Below, piece after piece: positions 8,601 to 27,416 of a stretch of DNA of 64,000 nt. A program made the translations under genes and the position numbers. Source of the stretch: an uncultured Chloroflexia bacterium (lineage in GTDB: Bacteria > Chloroflexota > Limnocylindria > Limnocylindrales > CSP1-4); assembly GCA_963831745.1 (NCBI GenBank), contig CAWHRD010000008.1, positions 73,816 to 137,815 of the forward strand, given 5' to 3'. How positions within the stretch are numbered: the stretch's first letter is position 1; each line of letters starts with the position of its first letter. The notes below the pieces were generated by a model. It was not told the origin of the DNA. It did no database searches and was given only the letters and a program-made list of their open reading frames with translations.

Positions 8601-9003
8601 CGAAGACCGCCAGGAGCGCGTCGCCGGCAAACTTCTCGACGTAGGCGCCGTTGCGGCCGGCGACGCTTGTGAGCCTCGCGACGATCGGGTCGACGATCTC
8701 CAGCAGGTCCTCGGCGTCGACCTGCTGGGCCAGGGCGGTGAACCCCGAAATGTCGGCGAAGAGCGCCGTGACGAGCCGACGCTCGTCGGGGAGGTCTCGG
8801 TCCGCCGTGGCGATCCCAGCAGGGACACGTGCGCCGACGAGGGTCCGAGGGCGCTCGGAATCCGCCTCGAGCCGCTCGCCGGCTTCTCCGGCCTCGACCG
8901 GTGGAACGGACGGAGGCTGCGCACGGGCCGCAAGCAGAGAGCCGCAGTCGCCGCAGAAACGCTTGTCGACCGGGTCGTCGGCCCCGCACACCGGACAGGT
9001 CAT
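5683..9003 (-). CDS. adenylate/guanylate cyclase fused to AAA ATPase and TPR-like region (STAND-type signalling protein)
   Basis: N-terminal zinc ribbon CPVCG..CGDCG. Class III cyclase motifs LVTALFADISGFTAL and YVEKFAGDALLAVFG. Walker A GEPGAGKTTLL. Long helical-repeat C-terminus. No LuxR HTH seen. Confidence 0.85.
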   Translation of the reverse strand: MTCPVCGADDPVDKRFCGDCGSLLAARAQPPSVPPVEAGEAGERLEADSERPRTLVGARVPAGIATADRDLPDERRLVTALFADISGFTALAQQVDAEDLLEIVDPIVARLTSVAGRNGAYVEKFAGDALLAVFGAPTAHEDDAERALLTAMEMHQELGRVRHELPSPARDLGLHIGVSSGHGIARIIGSEARVDYGVLGDAVILAQRLESHAPPGETYVGEATVALARDRFVFEPIAPLAVKGRDTPVPAWRLLGRAAGIPTVAGARPPELVGRDAELRALKGLVVRLGSPTGVVAVVSGEPGAGKTTLLDAFRRRLKAGPLRVLSTRCLSYGATLPYHPWAGLVRAEAGIDPDDPPGRVGAALAASLAGEGASILPYLARLAGVPAAPGGSDDATDAAARLEPEALKRALHDAFCDWLLRQGRGRSIALLVEDVQWIDAASLDLLRDVAGRAGRSPLLLCLTTRPEGVEIAASVIARGVAGGSRRLDLALAPLPLADVEGLVRRLLGGEPPDLLARALADRTGGNPYFVTESVRALREAGTLAADAGGWRLARDWEIDAVPETIEEILGARIDRLSPGTAHLLQEASIIGRWIRRPLLRAIADEPESLDERIVELVAGGFLDRPQEEAGEVLAFHHALVQDVAYGRLLRRQRRELHLRTADAVEALYGSGDDAIDLLARHLYLAHAGARAIVALVRSAAKARGLFANDEAILGFARAVEIARTTPDAFEQLPEILLSLGDLHDLRGDYEQAAVLYAEVRTSANDLRAWRGLATVRRRQGSYAEALGLLDEAERELPPEADRREIHLERASTLLFAGRFAEAARAAEAGLALAGIGVTETGLAESGATATLAETADRTTGRLILELAAAEHQRRAPESQDAALRNARTAEAILRRFDDVRGIVVALRTTGSAEWLRGRPEEAATILEGALRLAERTGGVEEIGGTLIDLGVVRLALGQPGLALEADRRAIAEFERVGHASGRMIATANMAEALVAAGELDGALASADDALRLAAELDDPTTTADVTLTIARERLRRGDHVGAIERAEDAARRFLELGEPSTAADALRLGVEAARASGSEERTRALEARIRSLEDPGGADLPPRRD

Positions 9004-9105
9004 GACAACGGCGCACCTCTGCGCTGGACGATACCTCTTCGTCTGCCCCTCCGGGACCCTGGCCCAGGTCGATGGCCGGACCCGAAGCCGCCGCGGCCGC
9101 GTCGG

Positions 9106-9723
9106 TCAGGCGCGGCCCGTCTCTGGATTCTCGCCGGCGGCCAGGACGAACGCCGCCACGCGGTCCAGCGCGTCGTCCAGGACCGAGGCCAGCCCGTGCC
9201 CCAGCCGGGGGTACGTGACCAGCTCGGCCGCCGGCAGCCGTTCCGCCACGGCGCGCTCCAGCAGGGCGGGAGTCGCGAAGGGGTCGGACGTCCCGGAGAG
9301 CAGGATCACGGGGCACGAGATCCGGGGCCAGTGGGCGGTCCGGGCGTCCCAGTCGTCGGCGCGACCGGGCGCGTGCAGCGGGTAGGACAGCAGGACGAGC
9401 GCCCGCGGTGGGCGCCCGGCGTCGCAGGCCTCGGCCGCGGCCAGGCTGGCGACCCGCCCGCCGAACGAGTGGCCGCCGAGCGCGATCCCCGGATCGGCCG
9501 CCAGGATCGCCGCGAAGACGGGGATCGCGCGCTCGGCGCGGCCGCGCGGCAGGTCGACGGCCCGGGCGTCGATCTCGCGGGCCCGCAGGCCGGCGACGTG
9601 GGGTGCCATCGTCGCCGCGCTCCCGGACGCGCCGTGCCCGAGCACGAGGACCGGGCCCGGATGTGCAGCCGGCGCGAGGTCCGGCTCGCCGGCGTGGGTC
9701 AGGTCGGCGCGCGGGCGACTCAT
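9106..9723 (-). CDS. alpha/beta hydrolase
   Basis: ATG at 9723 (MSRPRADL) forms an ATGA overlap with the upstream gene's stop. Motifs LVLGHGASG, GGHSFGG nucleophile elbow, LLSGTSDPF. The upstream part of the 348-aa track ORF is Arg-rich junk. Confidence 0.7.
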   Translation of the reverse strand: MSRPRADLTHAGEPDLAPAAHPGPVLVLGHGASGSAATMAPHVAGLRAREIDARAVDLPRGRAERAIPVFAAILAADPGIALGGHSFGGRVASLAAAEACDAGRPPRALVLLSYPLHAPGRADDWDARTAHWPRISCPVILLSGTSDPFATPALLERAVAERLPAAELVTYPRLGHGLASVLDDALDRVAAFVLAAGENPETGRA

Positions 9724-14485: not shown

Positions 14486-15426
14486 GCACCCCGCCCTGGC
14501 TCGACGCCGACCCGTCCGAGATCGCGCCGGTCGTCCTCGTGGCCGGCGGCTTCCTGACGACGCCGGGATGGTACCGGCCGATGACCGCGTCGCTCCTTGC
14601 CCGCGGGGCGGCCGACGTCGTCGTGGCCCGGGTCTACCCGCCCGACTGGGTTCTCTGCACCGTGCGCGGCCTGGGGCCCGTGACCACCCGCGTCGGCCGG
14701 GCGCTGCTCGAGGCCACCGATCGCAGCCGCGACAACGCGGCCAGCCGTGGCGCCCCGATCCTGTACGTGGGGCACAGCGCCGGCGGGATCGTTGGCCGGC
14801 TGCTCACCTCGCCGGTGGCGTTCGAGGGCCGGCACCTCAACGCGAGCGGACGCATCGGGGCGCTGGTCACGCTCGGCGCGCCGCACCTGGTGGGCGATGA
14901 GGCGCGCTGGGGAAGCCGGGTGGGGGACGCGGGCGCCCGCTTCGCGAACCGCCACGTGCCCGGGGCCTTCTTCGCCCCGACGACCGGCTACCTCGCCGTC
15001 GCCTCCCGCTTCATCGTCGGCCACGACCAGGCGGAGGATGGCCGGTCGCGCTTCATGCGGCGGCTCTACGAGGACGTCCACCCGGCGCCGGACCAGCCGA
15101 TCGTCGCCGGCGACGGCCTCGTCCCGGTCGCCTCCGCGCTGTTGCCCGGCGCGCGCCACCTGGTCCTCGAGGACGCGGTCCACGGGCCGGGGGTCCGCGA
15201 CCCGTGGTACGGGCAGGAGGCCCAGCTCGATGCCTGGTGGCCGACCGCGCTGGAGATATGGCGAGAGCGCGCTCCGCGCGCGCCGGTCGCTGCGGTCCGG
15301 GAGCAGCGGGGATCCTCCTACCGGGTGATCGCCACCGCGCGCGCCGTCACTCGCCTCCGAAGGCGACGTCGAGGGCGCTGCGCAGCATCTTCACGACCCG
15401 TTCGCGGGATAGCTCGTCCGGGGTGA
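14482..15426 (+). CDS. alpha/beta hydrolase (lipase/PGAP1-like)
   Basis: GTG 14482 follows AAGGAGG and forms a GTGA overlap with the MFS stop. Nucleophile elbow YVGHSAGGIVG. The 3' end overlaps the convergent NUDIX gene. Confidence 0.65.
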   Translation: MSTPPWLDADPSEIAPVVLVAGGFLTTPGWYRPMTASLLARGAADVVVARVYPPDWVLCTVRGLGPVTTRVGRALLEATDRSRDNAASRGAPILYVGHSAGGIVGRLLTSPVAFEGRHLNASGRIGALVTLGAPHLVGDEARWGSRVGDAGARFANRHVPGAFFAPTTGYLAVASRFIVGHDQAEDGRSRFMRRLYEDVHPAPDQPIVAGDGLVPVASALLPGARHLVLEDAVHGPGVRDPWYGQEAQLDAWWPTALEIWRERAPRAPVAAVREQRGSSYRVIATARAVTRLRRRRRGRCAASSRPVRGIARPG

Positions 15427-15826
15427 GCCAGGCCGCCCGGTCGGTGGAACCGTCGGGCTCGTCGCGGAGCACGCCCCCGGTCACGGTCACCCGGAACAGG
15501 AGCGCGATCGCGTGCATCTCGCGGGGCCGGCCGTCGGGAAGCCGCCCGGGGTAGACGTGCGAGCGGTGGCCGATGATCCCTTCCACCCGCCCGACGAGCC
15601 CCGTCTCCTCCTCCAGCTCGCGCAGCACGGCGGCCGCGGGATCCTCGCCGAAGTCGATCCCGCCGCCGGGGAGCGTCCACGATCCGGGTGACGGCTCGCC
15701 CGGCGCCAGCCGGCAGCAGAGCAGCCGGTCGCCGTCGCCGCAGACGGCATAGGCGGCGACCCGCACGAGGCGGACGACGCCGTCCTCGCCGGCCGCGGCA
15801 CGGGTGCGCTCGGACCAGGGGGTCAT
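15347..15826 (-). CDS. NUDIX hydrolase
   Basis: Nudix box GGGIDFGEDPAAAVLRELEEETGL. Confidence 0.85.
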   Translation of the reverse strand: MTPWSERTRAAAGEDGVVRLVRVAAYAVCGDGDRLLCCRLAPGEPSPGSWTLPGGGIDFGEDPAAAVLRELEEETGLVGRVEGIIGHRSHVYPGRLPDGRPREMHAIALLFRVTVTGGVLRDEPDGSTDRAAWLTPDELSRERVVKMLRSALDVAFGGE

Positions 15827-15902
15827 GACGGCGAAGTATCGCCATCCGCGGCGGACTGCGCGAGCCCCAGCTCGCGGCGTCGCCTGGTGCCACGCGGTTG
15901 GA

Positions 15903-16695
15903 TCATGCCGCCGGGTGTTGCGCGTCGATCGCGAGCACGGCCTCGGCCGCGAGGTGGAGGAGAAGAGCGCGTCCCTCGGCGTGATGGGGCCATCCGCGTG
16001 GATCCCAGGCCGCGCCTGAGAGGTCGTCCCCCGCGTAGAGCATCTGGCCGAAGGAGACGCCCCGGAACCGCGCGACGGCGAAGAACGCGGCCGCCTCCAT
16101 CTCGACGGTTAGGCAGCCCTCCGCCACCCTGCGGCTCGATCTTCGCCCGCGTCTCACGGTAGAACCCGTCGGTCGTCCAGGTCTTGCCCGTCACGTGAGG
16201 GATGGCATGCCGCTCGAGGGTGGCCAGGATGGCGGCGACGGCGTCGTCCGTCGGTGCCACCTCCCGCGACGGCGGCGCGTAGTGGTAGCTCGTCCCCTCG
16301 TCGCGAACGGCCGCCGTCGGCACGACGATGTGACCGAGAGCGAGCTCCGGAACGAGCACGCCGGCGCCGCCGACCGCCACGAATGCTCGGCAGCCGAGGG
16401 CGATCAGCTCGTCCAGCCACCCGGCCGCCAGCGGCGCGCCGACGCCGGCCTGGGCGATCGCCAGGCGTCGCCCGCCGTAGTCGACCTCGTAGATCGGATG
16501 CGGGCCCATCTCGGACGCGAGCGCCCCGATCTCGCGACCGCCGAGCTCGGCGACGGCAGACGCGATCACGTCCCGAAAGAAGCAGAGAACGGCGTGCCGC
16601 GGCATGTCGAACGGCGCGTGGGCGAGCGCCGGCTCGATCACGGCCAATGGCGTCGGATCGAACTCGAGGATCGGAGCGTCGGGGAGGTCGGACAA
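15903..16695 (-). pseudogene. nucleoside phosphorylase (PNP_UDP_1 family) with a +1 frame break near 16129-16135
   Basis: The N-terminal two-thirds are in the frame of track ORF 15823..16965 (..GVGAPLAAGWLDELIALGCRAF..TWTTDGFYRETRAKIE). The C-terminus is in the frame of ORF 15903..16157 (RRVAEGCLTVEMEAAAFFAVA..). Start is TTG 16695 after AGGAAG, or GTG 16713. Confidence 0.7.
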
Positions 16696-16954
16696 TGGAC
16701 TTCCTGGTCGCACGCGGCAGGTGGGGGATCGACGCCGCGATCGTCGTCGCCCGACGTCGCGAGCGCAAGGCCCGGCGCGTTTCGACGGCCCCGGCAGGAC
16801 CACGGACGAGGCGATCGAGCTGCTCGTGCGACGGCCAGACCCGACGCCCGCCCAGGCTCCGGCCGCGCAAGGCTCACGGTCACGTCCCGGCGTAAGCGCA
16901 ACAGCGCGCTCGTCGCCGCGCCGCGTCCCGCGATCCGCGCAACTGATGGCGTCC

Positions 16955-17162
16955 GATCCTGTCAAATGCTGGCGGAGCGATCCTTACGGCATGTGGCCGG
17001 AGCCCGCGCGTCGCCGGAGCCCCTCCAGGAGGCGCGCGATCCTGTCACCGGTGCCGCGGGGCAGGCACCTGATCAACCTCCGCCCCGTCGCGGGACGGCT
17101 CGTCCTTGAGCGGGCAGGGGCCTTCGCACATACGGCTCGCGTGACGCGCATTTGACAGGATC
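16955..17162. mobile_element. MITE-like 208-bp interspersed element, copy 1
   Basis: 15-bp terminal inverted repeats GATCCTGTCAAATGC (16955-16969) and GCATTTGACAGGATC (17148-17162). An internal third copy of GATCCTGTCA sits near 17037. It is clearly homologous, in reverse orientation, to 63140-63347. Confidence 0.5.
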
Positions 17163-19526: not shown

Positions 19527-20526
19527 TTGAGCATGTCGACGAGTCCCGCGACCCTCCGCCGCGACGAGGCAGGGTCCGGCGAGACCCGCCTGATGCTCCG
19601 CGCCGCCCAGCTCTACTACCGCCTGAACCTGACCCAGGACGAGGTCGGCAAGCGGCTCGGGGTGAGCCGCTTCAAGGTCGGCCGGCTCCTGGACCGGGCG
19701 CTGCGCGAGGATGCCGTCCGGATCGAGATCGTCCACCCGGCCGCCCGGCTGGTGGCCCTCGAGGACGCCCTCGTCGAGCGCTTCGGGCTCGCCGGCGCGG
19801 TCGTGGTCGACGTGCCGGCCACGGGCTCGCCGGCCGACGACGAGCTCCTCGCGCGCGAGCGGGTCGCCGCCGCGGCCGCCCTCCACCTGGCCACGATCCG
19901 GCCGCAGGGCGCGATCGGCGTCTCCTGGGGGCGCACGATGCTGCAGCTCGCGGCCCACCTGCAGCCCGGCTGGACGTCCGCGACGGAGATCGTGCAGCTC
20001 AACGGGGCGATCTCGCGGTCGGCGCTCCCGACGCGGGCCCAGGAGGTCGTCGAGCGGTTCGGGACCACGACCGGGGCCGCCATCCGGCTGATGGCGGCGC
20101 CCGCGATCGTCGGCTCGCCCGACCTGCGCCGGGCCCTGGAGGACGACGCGGCGGTCGGGGAGACGCTCGCCGCGGCGCGCACCGCACGGACGGCCATCTT
20201 CGGGATGGGCGTCCATGGGCCGGACAGCGTCCACGTCGCGTCGGGCTACCTCGACGAGGCCGAGCTCGGCGGCGCTGTCCGAGGCCGGCGCCGTCGGCGA
20301 CGTCCTGGGTCGGTTCCTGGCCCAGGACGGCCGCATCGCGCTTCCCTCGCTCGACGCCCGGACCGTGGGGCTGCCGCTGGATGACCTGCGGGCGAAGCCG
20401 CTGACCGTCGGGCTCGCCGCGGGCGCGGGACGCGGCCCGATCGCGCTGGCGGCCCTGCGCGCCGGCATCGTCACCGTCCTCGTCGCCGACGAGGCGACCG
20501 CCGCGTGGGTGCTGGCCCATGGCTGA
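19527..20526 (+). pseudogene. SorC/DeoR-type sugar-phosphate-binding transcriptional regulator, +1 frame break near 20268
   Basis: N-terminal HTH RLMLRAAQLYYRLNLTQDEVGKRLGVSRFKVGRLL plus sugar-binding domain in frame 0. The C-terminus ALSEAGAVGDVLGRFLAQDGRI..VLVADEATAAWVL continues in frame +1 (track ORF 20215..20526). Start is TTG 19527 or ATG 19533. Confidence 0.75.
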
Positions 20527-21161
20527 CCCGCGCACGCCATCGGCCGACGAGGTCCGGGCGCTGGTCCGGAGGATCGTCGACGCCACGCTCGACGGCGGCA
20601 CTCCGGGACCGTCCGCACCCCCGACGCCGGCCGCGCCCGCCCCTGCGCCCGCGCCCGCCCCTGCTCCCGCACGTGCCGCGGGATCCATCGCCATCGCGAT
20701 CGGCGCCGACCACGGCGGCTGGCAGCTCAAGGACGTCATCGGCCGGGTCCTGGCCGAGGCCGGCTACGCGGTCACCGACTGCGGCACCAACGGGCCCGAC
20801 GCGGTGGACTACCCCGACATCGCGCACGCGGTGGCGCGCCTGGTCGCCGACGGGAGCCTGCCGCTACGGCATCGTCCTCGACGGCGCCGGGATCGGCTCG
20901 TGCATGGTCGCCAACAAGGTGCCGGGCATCCGCGCTGCCAACTGCCATGATCTCTCGTCGGCCCGCAACAGCCGCGAGCACAACCACGCCAACGTCCTGG
21001 CGCTCGGCGCCCGCTTCCTCGGCGAGGGGCTGGCGATCGAGATCGTGCGGGCCTGGCTCGGGACCGACTGGGCGCCCGGCCGCCACGCCGCCCGCGTGGC
21101 CAAGATCACGGACGTCGAACGCCGCTACACGAACCCAACCGGTGAGGGTCGACCACGATGA
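20519..21161 (+). pseudogene. rpiB: ribose-5-phosphate isomerase B with ~57-aa N-terminal targeting-peptide-like extension; +1 frame break near 20857
   Basis: [35 protein letters not shown] is in one frame. [42 protein letters not shown] continues in the +1 frame (track ORF 20505..21161). The N-terminus is [17 protein letters not shown] followed by a Pro/Ala linker. Confidence 0.75.
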
Positions 21162-21307
21162 GCGAAGCGATCAACCAGCGGAACGACCTCGTCGAGGCGA
21201 TCACCCACGAGGTCCTCGCCGCGCTGGGCCACGGCGGCCAGGCCGGCGGCGCGCCCCGGATCCCTGCGCCGCCTGCGTCCGCGGCTGCGCCGCCCAGTGC
21301 GCGGTGA
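21158..21307 (+). CDS. 49-aa ORF: amphipathic helix plus Pro/Ala linker (targeting-peptide-like, no enzyme domain)
   Basis: ATG 21158 forms an ATGA overlap with the RpiB stop. TGA 21305-21307 forms a GTGA overlap with GTG 21304 of DeoC. Sequence: [49 protein letters not shown]. Too short to appear in the ORF track. Confidence 0.45.
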
Positions 21308-22047
21308 AGGTCCGCGACATCGTGGCCGGCGGCGCCTCGCGCGTGGAGTACCACGGCCCGGGCGCGGAGGTGCCGCGCGACCTCGCCCGCTACATCGACC
21401 ACACGCTGCTGCGGCCCGACGCCGCGGCCGCCGACATCGACCGCCTGTGCGACGAGGCCGCCGAGCACGGCTTCGCCGCCGTCTGCGTGAACCCCGCCTG
21501 GGTCCGCCGCGCCGCCGATCGACTCCGCGGGACCGGTGTCGCCGTCGCCTCGGTCGTCGGGTTCCCGTTCGGCGCCACCCCGCCCGACGTCAAGGCCTTC
21601 GAGGCCCGCCGGGTCATCCGCGACGGGGCCCGCGAGGTCGACATGGTGATCAACATCGGGGCCCTCAAGAGCGGGATGCACGACCTCGTCCGCGAGGACA
21701 TCGCCCGCGTCTCGGACGCCTGCCACGAGGGCGGCGCGGCGAACAAGGTGATCATCGAGGCCGCCCTCCTGACCGACGCGGAGAAGGTCGTCGTCTGTCG
21801 TCTTGCCCAGCAGGCCAAGGCCGACATGGTCAAGACCTCGACCGGCTACGCGAAGGGCGGCGCGACGGTCTTCGACGTGGCGCTGATGCGGGAGACGGTC
21901 GGACCGAAGATGGGCGTCAAGGCGGCCGGCGGGATCCGGACGGCGGACGACGTGCAGGACATGATCGCGGCCGGCGCGACCCGCATCGGGGCCTCGGCCG
22001 GGGTCAGCATCGTCAGCGGGGAGAAGGGTGCGCATGGGCAGTACTGA
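21304..22047 (+). CDS. deoC: deoxyribose-phosphate aldolase, paralog 1
   Basis: [80 protein letters not shown] 21304 is taken as the start. It could instead be fused to the upstream 49-aa ORF if an indel is present. Confidence 0.85.
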
Positions 22048-22738
22048 GCACATCGCCGAAGTCCCCGCCGACCTCGCCCCCTACATCGACCACACGCTCC
22101 TCGACCCGGCCGCGACCCGGGCCGACATCGACGCCCTGTGCGCCGAGGCGAAGCGCTACGGCTTCGCGGCCGTCTGCGTGAACCCCGCCTGGGTGCGCCG
22201 CGCCTACGAGAACCTCGCCGGGACCAGGGTCGCGGTCGCCTCGGTCATCGGCTTCCCGCTCGGGGCCGCCACGACCGAGGTGAAGGTCCTCGAGACGCGC
22301 CGGGCTCTCCGCGACGGAGCCCGCGAGATCGACATGGTCATCAACGTCGGGCGGCTCAAGAGCGGGATGAACGAGTGGGTCGGCGACGAGATCCGCAAGA
22401 TCGCCGAGGTCTGCCACGAGGCCGGAGCGATCACGAAGGTCATCATCGAGACGTCGCTCCTGACCGACGCCGAGAAGGTGACCGCCTGTCGCCTCGCGAA
22501 GGAGGCCAGGGCCGACATGGTCAAGACGTCGACCGGCTGGGGGACCGGCGGCGCCACCGTCGCCGACGTGGCGCTGATGCGCGCGACGGTCGGCCCGGAG
22601 ATGGGCGTCAAGGCGTCCGGCGGCATCCGCACCGCCCAGGACGTGCAGGACATGATCGCCGCCGGCGCGACCCGCATCGGGGCCTCGGCCGGCGTCAAGA
22701 TCGTCACGGGAGAGAAGGGCGCAGATGGGCAATATTGA
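22034..22738 (+). CDS. deoC: deoxyribose-phosphate aldolase, paralog 2
   Basis: Same motifs as paralog 1 ([38 protein letters not shown]). ATG 22034 lies 5 nt after GAAGGG (the track starts it at GTG 22028). Overlaps paralog 1 by 14 nt. Confidence 0.85.
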
Positions 22739-23354
22739 CCTCCGGGCATACGTCTTCCTGGACAGCCTCCAGGCCCAGTACGCGGCGTTCCTCGGCACGG
22801 TTGCCCAGGGCTTCCTGCCCCTCGCCGGCGACGCCTCGCTGTCGATCGAGATCTCGCCCGGCATCGAGATCAACCGCCTCACCGACATCGCCCTCAAGTC
22901 CACGGCGGTCAAGCCCGGGATGCAGATCATCGAGCGCTACTACGGCATGCTCGAGATCCACTCGCCGTCGCAGGCCGAGGTGCGCGCCGCCGGCGCTGCG
23001 ATCCTCGGCGAGATCGGCCTGGCGGAGACCGACCGGATCAAGCCGCGGGTCCTGTCCTCCCAGATCATCCGCCGCATCGACGACCACCAGGCGCAGCTCA
23101 TCAACCGCACGCGCCACGGCCAGATGCTGATCCCGGGTCAGACGCTCTACGTCCTGGAGCTGGAGCCGGCGGCCTACGCTGCCCTGGCCGCCAACGAGGC
23201 GGAGAAGGCGGCCCACATCAACATCCTCGAGGTCCGGTCCTTCGGATCGATGGGCCGCATCTACCTGGGCGGCGAGGAGCGCGACATCGACGTCGGCTGG
23301 CGCGCGGCGCTCGCGGCGATCGAGGGCCTCGAGGGACGGGACGCCAAGGCGTAG
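22725..23354 (+). CDS. BMC shell protein, tandem-domain (BMC-T)
   Basis: [25 protein letters not shown] start, then two BMC-like halves (..[23 protein letters not shown] and ..[34 protein letters not shown]). It resembles the double-domain shell proteins of actinobacterial/myxobacterial BMC loci as I remember them. Confidence 0.8.
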
Positions 23355-23478
23355 GGCCCACGGGGCCGCCGACGCGCCGGCCGGGGGCCGGAACGCACGG
23401 ACCGCCGCCGGTTCGTCAGTACGCACGAACGGATACACAGGCGAACAGAAGAGCAAGGTCGAGAAGGAGAACGGATCG

Positions 23479-23787
23479 ATGGCAGAAGCGCTCGGGATGA
23501 TCGAGGCCCGCGGGTTCGCGGCGGTGGTCGAGGCCGCCGACGCGATGGTGAAGGCGGCGAAGGTCGAGCTCGTGAGCTACGAGAAGACCGGCGGCGGGTA
23601 CGTGACCGCGGTGGTCCGCGGCGACGTCGCCGCGGTCAAGGCCGCGGTCGAGGCCGGCGTGCGCAACGCCGGCAAGGTCGGCGAGGTCGTCGCCAGCCAC
23701 GTCATCGCCCGGCCGCACGTCAACGTCGACCTCGTGCTGCCGCTCGGCCGCCTCGACGAGGCGAAGGCCGAGTCCGGCCAGGGCTAG
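23479..23787 (+). CDS. BMC shell protein, hexamer type (BMC-H, PduA/EutM-like)
   Basis: Canonical [57 protein letters not shown]. Strong RBS GAGAAGGAGA. Confidence 0.95.
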
Positions 23788-23798
23788 GACGCGGGATC

Positions 23799-23827
23799 GG
23801 GCGCGCCGGCCGCCGGCCGGCGCGCCC
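23799..23827 (+). terminator. very strong intra-operon stem-loop directly after the BMC-H gene
   Basis: GGGCGCGCCGGCC-GCC-GGCCGGCGCGCCC, a perfect 13-bp GC stem with a 3-nt loop. It starts 12 nt after the BMC-H stop. No U-tract follows. Confidence 0.5.
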
Positions 23828-23851
23828 TCCCTGCCAGCAGGCGGTGATCAG

Positions 23852-24139
23852 ATGCTGCTTGGACGAGTGACCGGGACCGTGGTCGCGAGCCGCAAAGAGC
23901 CGCTCATGGAGGGCTGGAAGCTCCTCGTGGTGCGCCAGCTCGACGCGGAGAACCACGTGGCCGGCGGATACGTCGTGGCCGCGGACGCGGTCGGCGCGGG
24001 CGTCGGGGAGGTCGTGCTGTACGCGACCGGCAGCTCGGCGCGGAACACCGAGGCGACGAAGGACCGTCCCTGCGACGCGGTGATCGTGGCGATCGTCGAC
24101 ACGTGGGAGATCGGCGGGACGGAGGTCTACCGCAAGTAG
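23852..24139 (+). CDS. BMC vertex protein (BMC-P, EutN/CcmL family), paralog 1
   Basis: [56 protein letters not shown]. Confidence 0.9.
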
Positions 24140-24174
24140 CCGGCCGCTCGTCGACGGCGGGCAGGCGGAGGACG

Positions 24175-25629
24175 ATGGACGAGCGCGAGATCCAGGAGAT
24201 CATCGAGCGGGTGCGGCGCCGCGTGTCGGCAGCGGGCGACCCCCGCCCGGGCGCCACGCTGCGCGCCGAGGCGGAGCTGTCGGCGGCCGCCGCGAGCGAG
24301 CTGGGCGACGGCATCCACGCCACGATCGACGAGGCGGTGGCCGCGGCGACGCGCGCCTTCGTCGCGTTCCAGGCGCAGGGCCTGGCCGGCCGGAAGGTCA
24401 TCATCGACGCGGTGCGCCGCTCGATGCTCGACCACGCCGAGCAGCTGGCCCGGATGGCCCACCAGGAGACCCATCTCGGGCGCGTCGATGACAAGGTCGT
24501 CAAGAACCGCCTCGTCGCCTCCCGGGCGCCGGGGCCGGAGGACCTCGAGGTCCAGGCGGTCACCGGCGACGCCGGGATGATGGTCACCGAGTTCGCCCCG
24601 TTCGGCATCGTCGCGGCGATCACCCCGGTGACGAACCCGACGTCGACGATCATCAACAACACGATCAGCATCGTGTCGGCGGGGAACGCGGTCGTCTTCA
24701 ACGCCCACCCCAGCGCGCGGCGCTGCTCGGCCGAGACGGTCCGCCTCATCAACCGGGCGATCGTCGGGGCCGGTGGGCCGCCCGACCTCGTGACGGCCGT
24801 CGCGACGCCGACGATCGACACCGCGCGGGCCCTCATGGGCCATCCCGGCGTCCGGGTGCTGCTCGTGACCGGCGGGCCGGCCGTCGTGCGCGAGGCGCTC
24901 AAGTCGGACAAGCGGGCGATCACCGCCGGCCCCGGCAACCCGCCGGCGGTCGTCGACCAGACCGCCGACGTGGAACGCGCCGCCCGCGACATCGTGCGCG
25001 GAGCGTCCTTCGACAACAACATCGTGTGCATCGACGAGAAGGTCGTCCTGGTCGTCGACTCGGTCGCCGACCGCCTGGTCCGGGCGATGACCCAGAACGG
25101 CGCCTACCTGCTCAAGGAGCACGAGCTGCGCCGCCTCGAGCGCGTCATCTTCAAGGAGCTGGGTCAGCCGGGCAAGCCGGGCGTCATGAACCCGGCCTGG
25201 ATCGGCAAGGACGCCGTGAAGATCCTGGCCGAGATCGGCGTGCAGGCGGAGCCGGCTCCGCGCCTGCTGATCGCCGACGTCCCGCGCGACCACAGCTTGG
25301 CCTGGACCGAGCAGATGATGCCGGTCCTCCCGGTCGTGCGCGTCGGCACGGTGGACCAGGCGATCGACCTCGCGGTGCGCATGGAGCACGGCTTCCGCCA
25401 CACCGCCTCGATCCACTCCACGAACGTCGAGACGATCACGAAGATGGCCCGGGCGATGAACTGCAGCATCTTCGTCACGAACGGCCCCAACGTTGCGGGC
25501 CTGGGCGAGGGCGGCGAGGGCTTCACCTCGTTCTCCATCGCCAGCCCGTCCGGGGACGGCCTCACGCGGCCGCGGACGTTCTCGCGCGAGCGGCGCATCA
25601 CCGTCGTCGGCGCGCTGCGGATCGTCTGA
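24175..25629 (+). CDS. CoA-acylating aldehyde dehydrogenase (PduP/EutE-like) with N-terminal targeting helix
   Basis: ATG 24175 after GGCGGAGGA. N-terminus MDEREIQEIIERVRRRV then a linker. Aldehyde dehydrogenase core with FDNNIVCIDEKVVLV (catalytic Cys context typical of PduP/EutE). Confidence 0.9.
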   Translation: MDEREIQEIIERVRRRVSAAGDPRPGATLRAEAELSAAAASELGDGIHATIDEAVAAATRAFVAFQAQGLAGRKVIIDAVRRSMLDHAEQLARMAHQETHLGRVDDKVVKNRLVASRAPGPEDLEVQAVTGDAGMMVTEFAPFGIVAAITPVTNPTSTIINNTISIVSAGNAVVFNAHPSARRCSAETVRLINRAIVGAGGPPDLVTAVATPTIDTARALMGHPGVRVLLVTGGPAVVREALKSDKRAITAGPGNPPAVVDQTADVERAARDIVRGASFDNNIVCIDEKVVLVVDSVADRLVRAMTQNGAYLLKEHELRRLERVIFKELGQPGKPGVMNPAWIGKDAVKILAEIGVQAEPAPRLLIADVPRDHSLAWTEQMMPVLPVVRVGTVDQAIDLAVRMEHGFRHTASIHSTNVETITKMARAMNCSIFVTNGPNVAGLGEGGEGFTSFSIASPSGDGLTRPRTFSRERRITVVGALRIV

Positions 25630-25631
25630 CG

Positions 25632-26300
25632 ATGACCCCTCGGCCGGTGTCGGACGCTCGCCCGCCGATCGAGCCGGCCCTCGCGCTCCTCGAGCTCGAC
25701 TCGATCGCGGCCGGCATCGAGGCGGGCGACGCGATGGCGAAGCGCGCCCCGATCGACGTCCTCCGGGCCGGCACGGTCCACCCCGGCAAGTACCTGGTCC
25801 TCGTCGGCGGTGCCGTGGCGGACGTGGAGGAGGCCCTGGAGGCGGGCCGCGACGTGGCGGCGTCCTCGGTCCTCGACGTCGTCTTCCTGCCCAACGTCCA
25901 CCCGGCCGTCGTGGCGGCCATGCGCGGCATCCGCCGCGAGGCCGCCGGCGAGGCCCTCGGCATCATCGAGACCGCCACCGTCGCCGCGATCATCGAGGCG
26001 GCCGACGCAGGGCTCAAGGGTGCCCGGGTGGTCCTTCTGGAGCTGCGTCTCGCCGACGACCTCGGCGGCAAGGGCTACCTGCTCTTCGACGGGCCGGTCG
26101 CCGAGGTGGAGGCCGCGGTCGAGCTCGGGAGCGCGCGGATCGCCGGGTCGCCCGGTCTGGTCCGGCGGGTCATCCCGCAGCTCCACGCGGAGATGGCGGA
26201 GAACCTGGCCGCCGACGCGCGGTTCGCGGCGCGCATGCGCGAAGCCAGCGGGCCGGCGGGGTCGATCCCGCGGCCGCACCCCGCGAAGCCGGCGAGGTAG
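25632..26300 (+). CDS. BMC shell protein, tandem-domain (BMC-T), second type
   Basis: Two BMC domains: ALALLELDSIAAGIEAGDAMAKRAPIDVL..GKYLVLVGG and ALGIIETATVAAIIEAADAGLKGARVVLLELRL..GKGYLLFDG. Confidence 0.85.
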   Translation: MTPRPVSDARPPIEPALALLELDSIAAGIEAGDAMAKRAPIDVLRAGTVHPGKYLVLVGGAVADVEEALEAGRDVAASSVLDVVFLPNVHPAVVAAMRGIRREAAGEALGIIETATVAAIIEAADAGLKGARVVLLELRLADDLGGKGYLLFDGPVAEVEAAVELGSARIAGSPGLVRRVIPQLHAEMAENLAADARFAARMREASGPAGSIPRPHPAKPAR

Positions 26301-26303
26301 GCG

Positions 26304-26693
26304 ATGCAGCTCGCACGTGTCACCGGCACCGTCGTCGCCACGGTCAAGGTCCCGGGCCTGACCGGGATCAAGCTCCTCCTGGTCCAGCCGCTGGACCGCC
26401 AGCTGCTCCCCGTTGGCGGTCAGGTCGTCGCGGCCGATGCCGTCCACATGGCCGGACCGGGCGAGCTGGTGTACATCGTCGCCGCGCGCGAGGCGGCCCA
26501 GGCGATGCCCGATCCGTTCGTCCCGATTGACCATGCGATCGTCGGGATCGTGGACGCGGTTCGGTCACTGGCGGGTGACGATCCCGCTGCGTCCACCCCG
26601 GCCGAGCCGGTCGCCCCGGCCGTGCCTGACGCCCCCGGCGCCCCCGCCGCGCCTCCCGCCTCGAGGAGCCGCTCCCGGAAGGCGACGCCGTGA
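26304..26693 (+). CDS. BMC vertex protein (BMC-P), paralog 2, with Pro/Ala-rich basic C-terminal tail
   Basis: [55 protein letters not shown], then a ~40-aa tail ..PAEPVAPAVPDAPGAPAAPPASRSRSRKATP. Confidence 0.85.
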   Translation: MQLARVTGTVVATVKVPGLTGIKLLLVQPLDRQLLPVGGQVVAADAVHMAGPGELVYIVAAREAAQAMPDPFVPIDHAIVGIVDAVRSLAGDDPAASTPAEPVAPAVPDAPGAPAAPPASRSRSRKATP

Positions 26694-26971
26694 AGCTCGC
26701 CCGGGTCGTCGGGACCGTCGTCTCGACGATCGACCACCCCGCCTTCGACGGCCGGACCCTGCTGCTCTGCGACCTCCTCGACGCGGCCGGGCGCCCGGCC
26801 GGCGGCTACATGATCGCCGTCGATTCCGTCGGCGCGGGCGCCGGCGAGACAGTCCTCCTCCTCGACGAAGGCAACTCCGCGCGCCAGGTCCTCGCGGCGC
26901 CGGGCGCGCCGATCCGGACCGTCGTCGTCGGCATCGTCGACGAGGTGACCGCGGATGCCGATCACGCCTGA
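26690..26971 (+). CDS. BMC vertex protein (BMC-P), paralog 3
   Basis: GTG 26690 forms a GTGA overlap with the previous gene's stop. MKLARVVGTVVSTID..LLLCDLLD..MIAVDSVGAGAGETVLLLDEGNSAR..VVVGIVD. Confidence 0.9.
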   Translation: MKLARVVGTVVSTIDHPAFDGRTLLLCDLLDAAGRPAGGYMIAVDSVGAGAGETVLLLDEGNSARQVLAAPGAPIRTVVVGIVDEVTADADHA

Positions 26972-27416
26972 CGACGCCCGGGCCGTCCTCGCCCGCTGGC
27001 AGCCGGTGCTCCGGCTCGCCGACTGGGACATCGATCTCCGGCTCGTCACCACGGCGTGGCGCAAGCGCGGGGACGTCAAGGTGGACCTCGACGACCGCAA
27101 GGCCGTCCTGCTGCTGTGGGCCGGACAGCCCACGGAACACCTCGAGGAGGTGGTCGTCCACGAGCTGGTCCACCTGCGCCTCTACGCCATGGACCAGATG
27201 CTCGTCGAGCTGCTGGACGCGGTCTTCGGCACCGACGCCGCGGAGCCGCGGCGGGCCTTCGCCGAGACGCAGTTCATGACCCTGCTGGAATCGACCACCG
27301 AGGATCTGGCGAAGGCGCTGCTCGCGGCGAGTGGCAGCACCGCGCCCCTCACGTTCGAGCGCCTCCGCGACGAGGTCGAGCGCGAGATCGCGCCCGGGCC
27401 GACGACGGGCGAGTAG
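26955..27416 (+). CDS. hypothetical protein with HExxH motif, last gene of the BMC operon
   Basis: ATG 26955 overlaps the third BMC-P gene by 17 nt. VVVHELVHLRLY contains HELVH. 153 aa. No family recognised. Confidence 0.6.
   Translation: MPITPDDARAVLARWQPVLRLADWDIDLRLVTTAWRKRGDVKVDLDDRKAVLLLWAGQPTEHLEEVVVHELVHLRLYAMDQMLVELLDAVFGTDAAEPRRAFAETQFMTLLESTTEDLAKALLAASGSTAPLTFERLRDEVEREIAPGPTTGE

Follow-up and report, generated by a model that had tools for sequence, protein, structure and literature searches.

The sugar phosphate utilization (SPU) microcompartment has the aldolase DERA/DeoC as its signature enzyme and RPI as the usual neighbour (Dwyer et al. 2024, PMC11585597). DERA cleaves deoxyribose 5-phosphate and complexes with RPI, and the acetaldehyde goes to an encapsulated aldehyde dehydrogenase (PMC11585597). 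All SPU-associated DERAs bear an N-terminal extension, of approximately 70 residues in SPU6, the helix of which was proposed as an encapsulation peptide; automated annotation often misses this extension, and its deletion renders the SPU6 DERA soluble (PMC11585597). The latter finding indirectly supports the view that the extension might mediate encapsulation or aggregation of cargo. Here, we analysed a stretch of 64,000 nucleotides (nt) from an uncultured Chloroflexia bacterium (assembly GCA_963831745.1, contig CAWHRD010000008.1, positions 73,816 to 137,815), which will be referred to as the window, and in particular an open reading frame (ORF) of 49 amino acids (aa) located between an RpiB-family gene and a deoC gene. 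This ORF is very probably the 5′ fragment of an encapsulated DERA/DeoC gene that is cut by a one-base break, and no independent gene. Irrespective of whether the break is an error or a mutation, the small ORF is an accident of it and not a conserved functional element.

The 49-codon frame starts with the ATG at 21158-21160, which overlaps the RpiB stop codon (TGA, 21159-21161) as ATGA, and ends with the TGA at 21305-21307, which shares bases with the GTG at 21304-21306 (GTGA) from which the downstream aldolase is called. These coordinates and overlaps, first described in a reading of the sequence alone, were confirmed. The sequence-only reading had also taken both overlaps as signatures of translational coupling, which holds for the first only. 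The ATGA overlap with the RpiB stop is kept in 61 of 70 related loci, where it starts the full-length aldolase gene, and a Shine-Dalgarno-like GAGGG (21144..21148, plus strand) is located 9 nt 5′ of the aldolase ATG with its GGG invariant in a DNA alignment of six loci. In contrast, where the window has GTG 21304, only 6 of the 85 orthologue matches carry a start-type codon and most carry GAC or ACC/ACG, so the GTGA overlap is a coincidence, and within the full-length gene the GTG (21304..21306, plus strand) encodes an internal Val. The length of the ORF is uninformative as well, since the window has a G+C content of 73% and contains 124 ORFs of at least 40 aa across 16 kb.

Codon-position composition pointed in the same direction. 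The third-position G+C signal moves from the frame of the 49-aa ORF to the DeoC frame at approximately 21241-21270, upstream of the ORF stop, and the DeoC frame is open far 5′ of GTG 21304. Counted over 21257-21307, third positions were G or C in 14 of 15 codons of the DeoC frame vs 12 of 16 codons of the ORF frame. The last 16 residues of the ORF (21257-21304) are an out-of-frame translation of a conserved motif of four cysteines encoded in the DeoC frame. An independent small gene would be recognized as a conserved separate ORF with a coding signal throughout, neither of which was found for the 49-aa ORF. No equivalent separate ORF was detected in the related loci (83 cases in 85 loci), the split being present only in the window and in one error-ridden contig (L085, see below), and the 49-aa product, which comes from the contig of this genome, forms a one-member cluster in a collection of 15 billion proteins.

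To obtain the full-length product, the frame of the 49-aa ORF and the DeoC frame were fused by inserting a single residue. The repaired product comprises 296 aa and consists of the targeting helix, a linker, a CX2CX3CX3C motif and the DERA domain. Among the 120 homologues listed, 116 (292-313 aa) cover 100% of the repaired query at 76-90% identity; of the other four, two cover 97-98%, and two 247-aa calls (P0019 and P0106) cover 83%. P0019 is this genome's own aldolase call, located on a contig of 148,606 nt and 100% identical to the query over that 83% of its length. In the homologue alignment, the helix, a variable Gly/Pro/Ala linker, four near-invariant cysteines and the aldolase form a single chain. 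Tblastn with an intact orthologue placed residues 37-298 on 21259-22044 with 91.6% identity. The window aldolase matches Pfam DeoC (PF01791), and the equivalog model TIGR00126 matched the orthologue P0004 with 281 bits over residues 78-288, so that residues 1 to approximately 75 of the repaired protein precede the catalytic domain, in line with an extension of about 70 residues. D162, K226 and K255 of the repaired protein, corresponding to the catalytic Asp and the two Lys of class I DERA, are invariant columns. None of the 116 columns invariant in 118 homologues is violated, including those in the 15 codons 5′ of the annotated GTG.

The orthologous loci showed the same picture. A scan of one genome per species yielded 80 loci from Chloroflexota, Actinomycetota, Acidobacteriota and other phyla; 85 related loci were compared in all. 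In the intact orthologous locus L001, the genes follow the same order, and the ATG of its 298-aa DeoC overlaps the RpiB stop. The sequence-only reading had suggested aligning orthologous loci to see whether DeoC carries the N-terminal segment as one ORF. This is indeed the case, as 81 of 83 cases have the helix and the catalytic DHT motif in one stop-free frame; only the window and L085 deviate. In the window, extension and enzyme are thus found in two frames instead of one uninterrupted ORF, and a single base at 21256/21257 joins both.

The position of this base was determined by comparison with the closest intact orthologue (L086, which encodes P0001 and is 90% identical). The window linker is 10 nt (3n+1) shorter than the linker of L001. 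Between the conserved ALG and DPC codons, the only length differences between the window and L086 are an in-frame CAG and one missing base; at the break, the window reads GCGCCC-CGGATCCC, and L086 reads GCGCCCGCCGACCCC. With a G restored at 21256/21257, the window matches APADPC of P0001. Consequently, the last 16 residues of the ORF are out-of-frame. The proposal that a 1-nt deletion within 21250-21303 has split a fusion of encapsulation peptide and DeoC was therefore borne out, the homologues being one protein and the L086 alignment pinning one missing base after 21256.

On the plus strand, the gene is laid out as follows. The 5′ piece (21158..21256) runs from the start codon through the targeting helix to ...GGAP in the Gly/Ala/Pro linker and corresponds to residues 1-33 in the alignment with full-length homologues. 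It keeps the third-position signal up to approximately 21250 and is the sole part of the 49-aa ORF that is translated in the true frame. It is followed by the break (21256..21257), and then by the tail and stop of the ORF (21257..21307), which are non-coding in that frame and overlap the Cys motif encoded one frame over. The rest of the gene is found in the DeoC frame (21259..22047, stop codon 22045-22047), as indicated by tblastn, Pfam DeoC and the invariant columns. The description of the ORF product as an encapsulation peptide plus linker therefore applies to the helix and the linker up to 21256 and fails for the last 16 residues; much of the apparent Pro/Ala linker in the ORF is not real protein sequence.

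Taken together, the 49-aa ORF very probably represents the first 33 codons of the aldolase plus 16 out-of-frame codons. Loss of a base after 21256, in the Gly/Pro/Ala linker of variable length, would let the frame slip into a chance TGA, and gene callers would then restart the aldolase at the internal GTG 21304. The intended product would be a protein of approximately 296 aa with an N-terminal helix, a flexible linker, CX2CX3CX3C, a KVRxIVxGGAxRVEYxG segment and a class I aldolase barrel. Following the published SPU model, the extension would carry the aldolase into the shell, where the co-encapsulated aldehyde dehydrogenase would remove acetaldehyde. This gene architecture is already published, namely as the SPU-type microcompartment DERA with an N-terminal extension of approximately 70 residues (Dwyer et al. 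2024, PMC11585597).

Two further frame breaks were detected directly upstream. In the SorC-type regulator with a Sugar-bind domain (19527..20526, plus strand), a 1-nt insertion is present at approximately 20268. Pfam Sugar-bind is split there over two ORFs, the first tblastn piece ends at 20267 and the next begins at 20269 in another frame, and the extra G is absent from six orthologues. In the RpiB-family gene (20519..21161, plus strand), an SPU RPI with an N-terminal targeting helix and a Pro/Ala linker, a 1-nt insertion is present at approximately 20856; Pfam LacAB_rpiB extends over two frames, tblastn yielded two pieces in different frames, and the extra G is absent from seven orthologues. 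Both insertions are unique to the window and lie within 1 kb 5′ of the DERA break. The sequence-only reading had counted three nearby genes with +1 breaks; these two were verified, and a third was not found. Further frame breaks were not observed at 48.4-50.2, 53.4-54.9 and 61.2-63.1 kb in a non-exhaustive check, in which Pfam assigned the overlapping ORF pairs to distinct genes.

Concerning the origin of the break, a consensus or assembly indel error, with the gene of the organism intact, appears probable. A very recent real mutation is the second candidate and is possible, if rather unlikely. Since the untranslated four cysteines and all invariant columns are still kept, the break is either not real or very recent. 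Only two other broken DERA genes were found among the 85 loci, both on Flye-style 'contig_N' records. The first, L085 (ENA ERZ25039461, contig_33841), is a long-read-style contig that shares approximately 88% identity with the window and whose 16.7 kb contain at least 10 frame breaks; the second, L049 (MFD02979.bin.2.161), is a Microflora Danica Nanopore metagenome-assembled genome (MAG) with one frame break inside DERA. The relatives in the clade come largely from Nanopore-only assemblies, and the Microflora Danica MAGs are Nanopore-only with one round of Medaka polishing, for which residual indel errors have been acknowledged (PMC12313526).

Several observations weigh against this interpretation. 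With respect to an error, the three breaks cluster in approximately 1 kb and none is found in the other ~21 kb comparable with L001. Due to this clustering, a uniform error rate does not explain the breaks, and a local consensus problem or linked decay are the candidates. Simple changes in long homopolymers account for none of the three indels. The lineage carries a second aldolase without the extension (DeoC2), so that selection on DeoC1 could be relaxed, and assembled sequence alone does not separate an error from a real mutation. With respect to targeting, the hydrophobic moment of the helix (0.36) equals the mean of shuffled sequences, the AlphaFold2 model of P0004 has a predicted local distance difference test (pLDDT) score below 50 for residues 17-71, and the targeting role is inferred from homology with the published SPU DERA extension and from position.

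We next consider readings in which the 49-aa peptide is made as such. If the base is truly missing, translational coupling would yield a free helix peptide of 49 aa and an untargeted aldolase that starts at GTG 21304 without the Cys motif; the peptide might then sit in binding sites of the shell or cargo. Such a true deletion with two products gains some credit from the conserved Shine-Dalgarno-like GAGGG and the ATGA overlap at the ATG, from the overlap of the ORF stop with the GTG, from the grouping of the three breaks in adjacent, functionally linked genes rather than along the contig, and from DeoC2, which could assume catalysis. We nevertheless consider it improbable, as no ribosome-binding site is evident 5′ of GTG 21304, the separate ORF occurs in no related locus, the peptide is a singleton cluster, and one third of it is out-of-frame sequence. 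Moreover, the 15 codons 5′ of the GTG keep the four cysteines with no invariant column violated, so that the break would have to be very recent, and nothing points to selection for the peptide, even if it is made. A more specific form of a real deletion, which we regard as very improbable, is that the conserved ribosome-binding site and ATG produce a 49-aa peptide competing with RpiB, aldehyde dehydrogenase and other cargo for sites on the shell or core. The first 24 residues of the peptide would be an intact targeting helix, and catalysis would shift to the extension-less DeoC2, perhaps brought in by the DERA-RPI interaction. If true, the window would represent a natural experiment uncoupling a targeting peptide from its cargo.

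That the ORF is a conserved stand-alone gene for a scaffold or competitor consisting of an encapsulation peptide only, the first of two readings offered from the sequence alone and a type undescribed in microcompartments, is barely credible. Just the existence of the ORF and its two 4-nt overlaps speak for it. Against this, the helix is fused in frame to the aldolase in nearly all cases, the other exception being an error-ridden long-read contig, and the listed homologues are full-length fusions with four exceptions; the ORF frame loses its coding signal 5′ of its stop, and its 'linker' tail overlaps a conserved motif of another frame. A stand-alone peptide would have been new biology, but the conservation test contradicts it, and so does the singleton status of a product that is one third out-of-frame. 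Finally, a programmed −1 ribosomal frameshift that balances free helix peptide against full-length aldolase has practically no likelihood: slippage by −1 within 21229-21259 would give the full-length protein again, but this interval contains no X XXY YYZ slippery heptamer, the orthologues use a single frame and do not conserve the break, and two neighbour genes with unrelated +1 breaks suggest a common trivial cause.

The split EP-DERA gene is part of a microcompartment locus on the plus strand. According to Pfam, the order is SorC-type regulator, RpiB-family gene, 49-aa ORF, DeoC, DeoC2, CsoS1D-like BMC-T (22725-23354), BMC-H (23479-23787) and BMC-P (23852-24139), followed by the aldehyde dehydrogenase (24175-25629), a tandem-BMC protein (about 25630-26300), two BMC-P (26304-26693 and 26690-26971) and two proteins for which Pfam gave no match. 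The locus is bordered by nucleoside phosphorylase genes. The order of the shell and core genes (22725..26971) is the same as in L001, and with BMC-H, BMC-T, at least three BMC-P, an aldehyde dehydrogenase and an RPI neighbour the locus has the composition of an SPU locus. An antisense ORF of 315 aa (21106-22053, minus strand) was dismissed on the basis of codon-position G+C, which favours the plus strand. The second aldolase, DeoC2 (22028..22738, plus strand; Pfam DeoC), lacks the entire N-terminal extension and is 72% identical to the core of DeoC1. Among the 86 sequences checked, a tandem second DeoC was found only in the window and in L085 (~8690-9420). This distribution suggests a duplication specific to the lineage, with an untargeted or piggy-backed aldolase as its product.

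Two further regions of the window were recorded. Between the last BMC-P and a predicted membrane protein of 236 aa lies an ORF of 153 aa (26955-27416) whose third-position G+C is very high. Pfam gave no hit for this ORF, which shows weak, sub-threshold NCBIfam similarity to HExxH-type peptide beta-hydroxylases and contains VVHELVH; an equivalent is located at the same place in only four related loci (L007, L011, L014 and L057) and is absent from L001 and L085. On the minus strand, two genes (15318-16965) are located between a 286-aa gene of unknown function and a MerR regulator. Comparison with L085 marks one of them as NUDIX-like, and the other belongs to the PNP_UDP_1 phosphorylase superfamily. 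L001 carries no genes at this position, and the phosphorylase-like gene has no more than distant matches in the other loci.

Encapsulation peptides of metabolosome cargo are short terminal helices connected to the enzyme by a poorly conserved linker. Among the DERA homologues, no part of the alignment varies more than the linker, whose length also differs. The AlphaFold2 model of P0004, based on 118 aligned homologues, showed a confident barrel and a predicted helix at residues 8-21; residues 1-5 also had pLDDT values below 50, and the means of the 10-residue blocks over residues 1-20 were 46 and 49. Searches with the extension alone found nothing in NCBIfam at E ≤ 0.1 and nothing among the PDB sequences at E ≤ 10, and the precomputed Pfam domains of the full-length homologues comprise aldolase-barrel families only (PF01791, some also PF01180). 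The aldehyde dehydrogenase begins with MDEREIQEIIERVRRRVSAAG..., a targeting-helix-like N-terminus (24175-24230) that is conserved in 72 related loci, and the GTG at 24103 that opens the longest ORF is probably not its true start. A common hydrophobic spacing was observed at the N-termini of the three cargo proteins, with LVxxITxxVLxxL in DERA, VxxLVxxIVxxL in RPI and IxxIIxxV (IQEIIERV) in the aldehyde dehydrogenase. The window RpiB contains IVLDGAGIG (20880-20900), with Asp in the position of the catalytic Cys66 of E. coli RpiB. This Asp-for-Cys substitution is reported for all SPU RPIs, which may act mainly in cargo packaging (PMC11585597).

Between the helix and linker and the aldolase domain, the extension contains the motif CX2CX3CX3C (Cys codons 21265-67, 21274-76, 21286-88 and 21298-300), a conserved Cys-rich segment which the sequence-only reading had missed. 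DPC and, beyond the Cys motif, a conserved segment of 17 residues are both encoded in the DeoC frame (21259..22047). All 118 close homologues share the motif without variation, and 42 of 78 loci have it; L001 and L004-L069 are among the loci in which it was seen. A three-Cys form (CX2CX3C...S) was found in 21 of the 78, a longer Cys-rich form in four, three of them from Gaiellaceae or Gaiellales, and a shorter extension with one Cys or none in 11. No match to the motif was obtained in Pfam, NCBIfam or PDB. With the 3-4-4 spacing, the four thiols would line up along a single helix face, and AlphaFold predicted a helix here with low confidence. The motif might represent a bridging metal or iron-sulfur site or a redox-dependent cross-link of cargo.

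Targeting extensions located behind low-complexity, very G+C-rich linkers of variable length are easily detached by consensus errors and start choices, yielding orphan 'peptide' ORFs and seemingly untargeted enzymes. Both the 49-aa ORF and the 247-aa aldolase fragment are deposited as separate proteins in the public collection, and since the long-read contigs L085 and L049 carry frame breaks, public protein sets for the clade contain many truncated microcompartment proteins. Upon correct reconstruction, all three core enzymes (RPI, DERA and aldehyde dehydrogenase) bear N-terminal helices, and the extension of the aldolase holds a conserved Cys cluster that is not discussed in the published description of SPU DERA.

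In comparison with known systems, the window extension resembles generic encapsulation peptides in combining a terminal helix of approximately 15 residues with a low-complexity linker of variable length. Known encapsulation peptides belong to enzymes or scaffold proteins, and we know of no free-standing one; the window case adds no such example. The split gene calls resemble those of Nanopore-only MAGs, in which single-base indels unique to one assembly likewise break conserved genes, and L085 and L049, close relatives from such assemblies, show the same problem, although the breaks in the window are few and clustered and not spread. The closest described system is the SPU6 DERA of Chloroflexi bacterium GWB2_54_36 (Dwyer et al., Commun Biol 2024, PMC11585597). 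The window shares with it a class I DeoC beside an RpiB-family gene, and the locus further contains BMC-H, BMC-T, three BMC-P genes and an aldehyde dehydrogenase. The equivalents of the SPU6 residues D165/K229/K258 sit three residues earlier in the repaired window protein (PMC11585597). Two differences concern the neighbouring cargo and the clade: the SPU6 aldehyde dehydrogenase has a C-terminal peptide, whereas that of the window has an N-terminal helix, so that despite the similar gene content the locus may not be SPU6 as defined (PMC11585597), and the extension of the window clade contains the variable Gly/Pro/Ala linker and CX2CX3CX3C, a motif on which the main text of that publication is silent (PMC11585597). 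The window gene itself differs from the SPU6 gene by the one-base frame break. As in SPU6, the extension precedes the catalytic domain with the helix first; in the window clade it comprises approximately 75 residues, and it has been truncated by automated annotation just as reported for SPU DERAs (PMC11585597).

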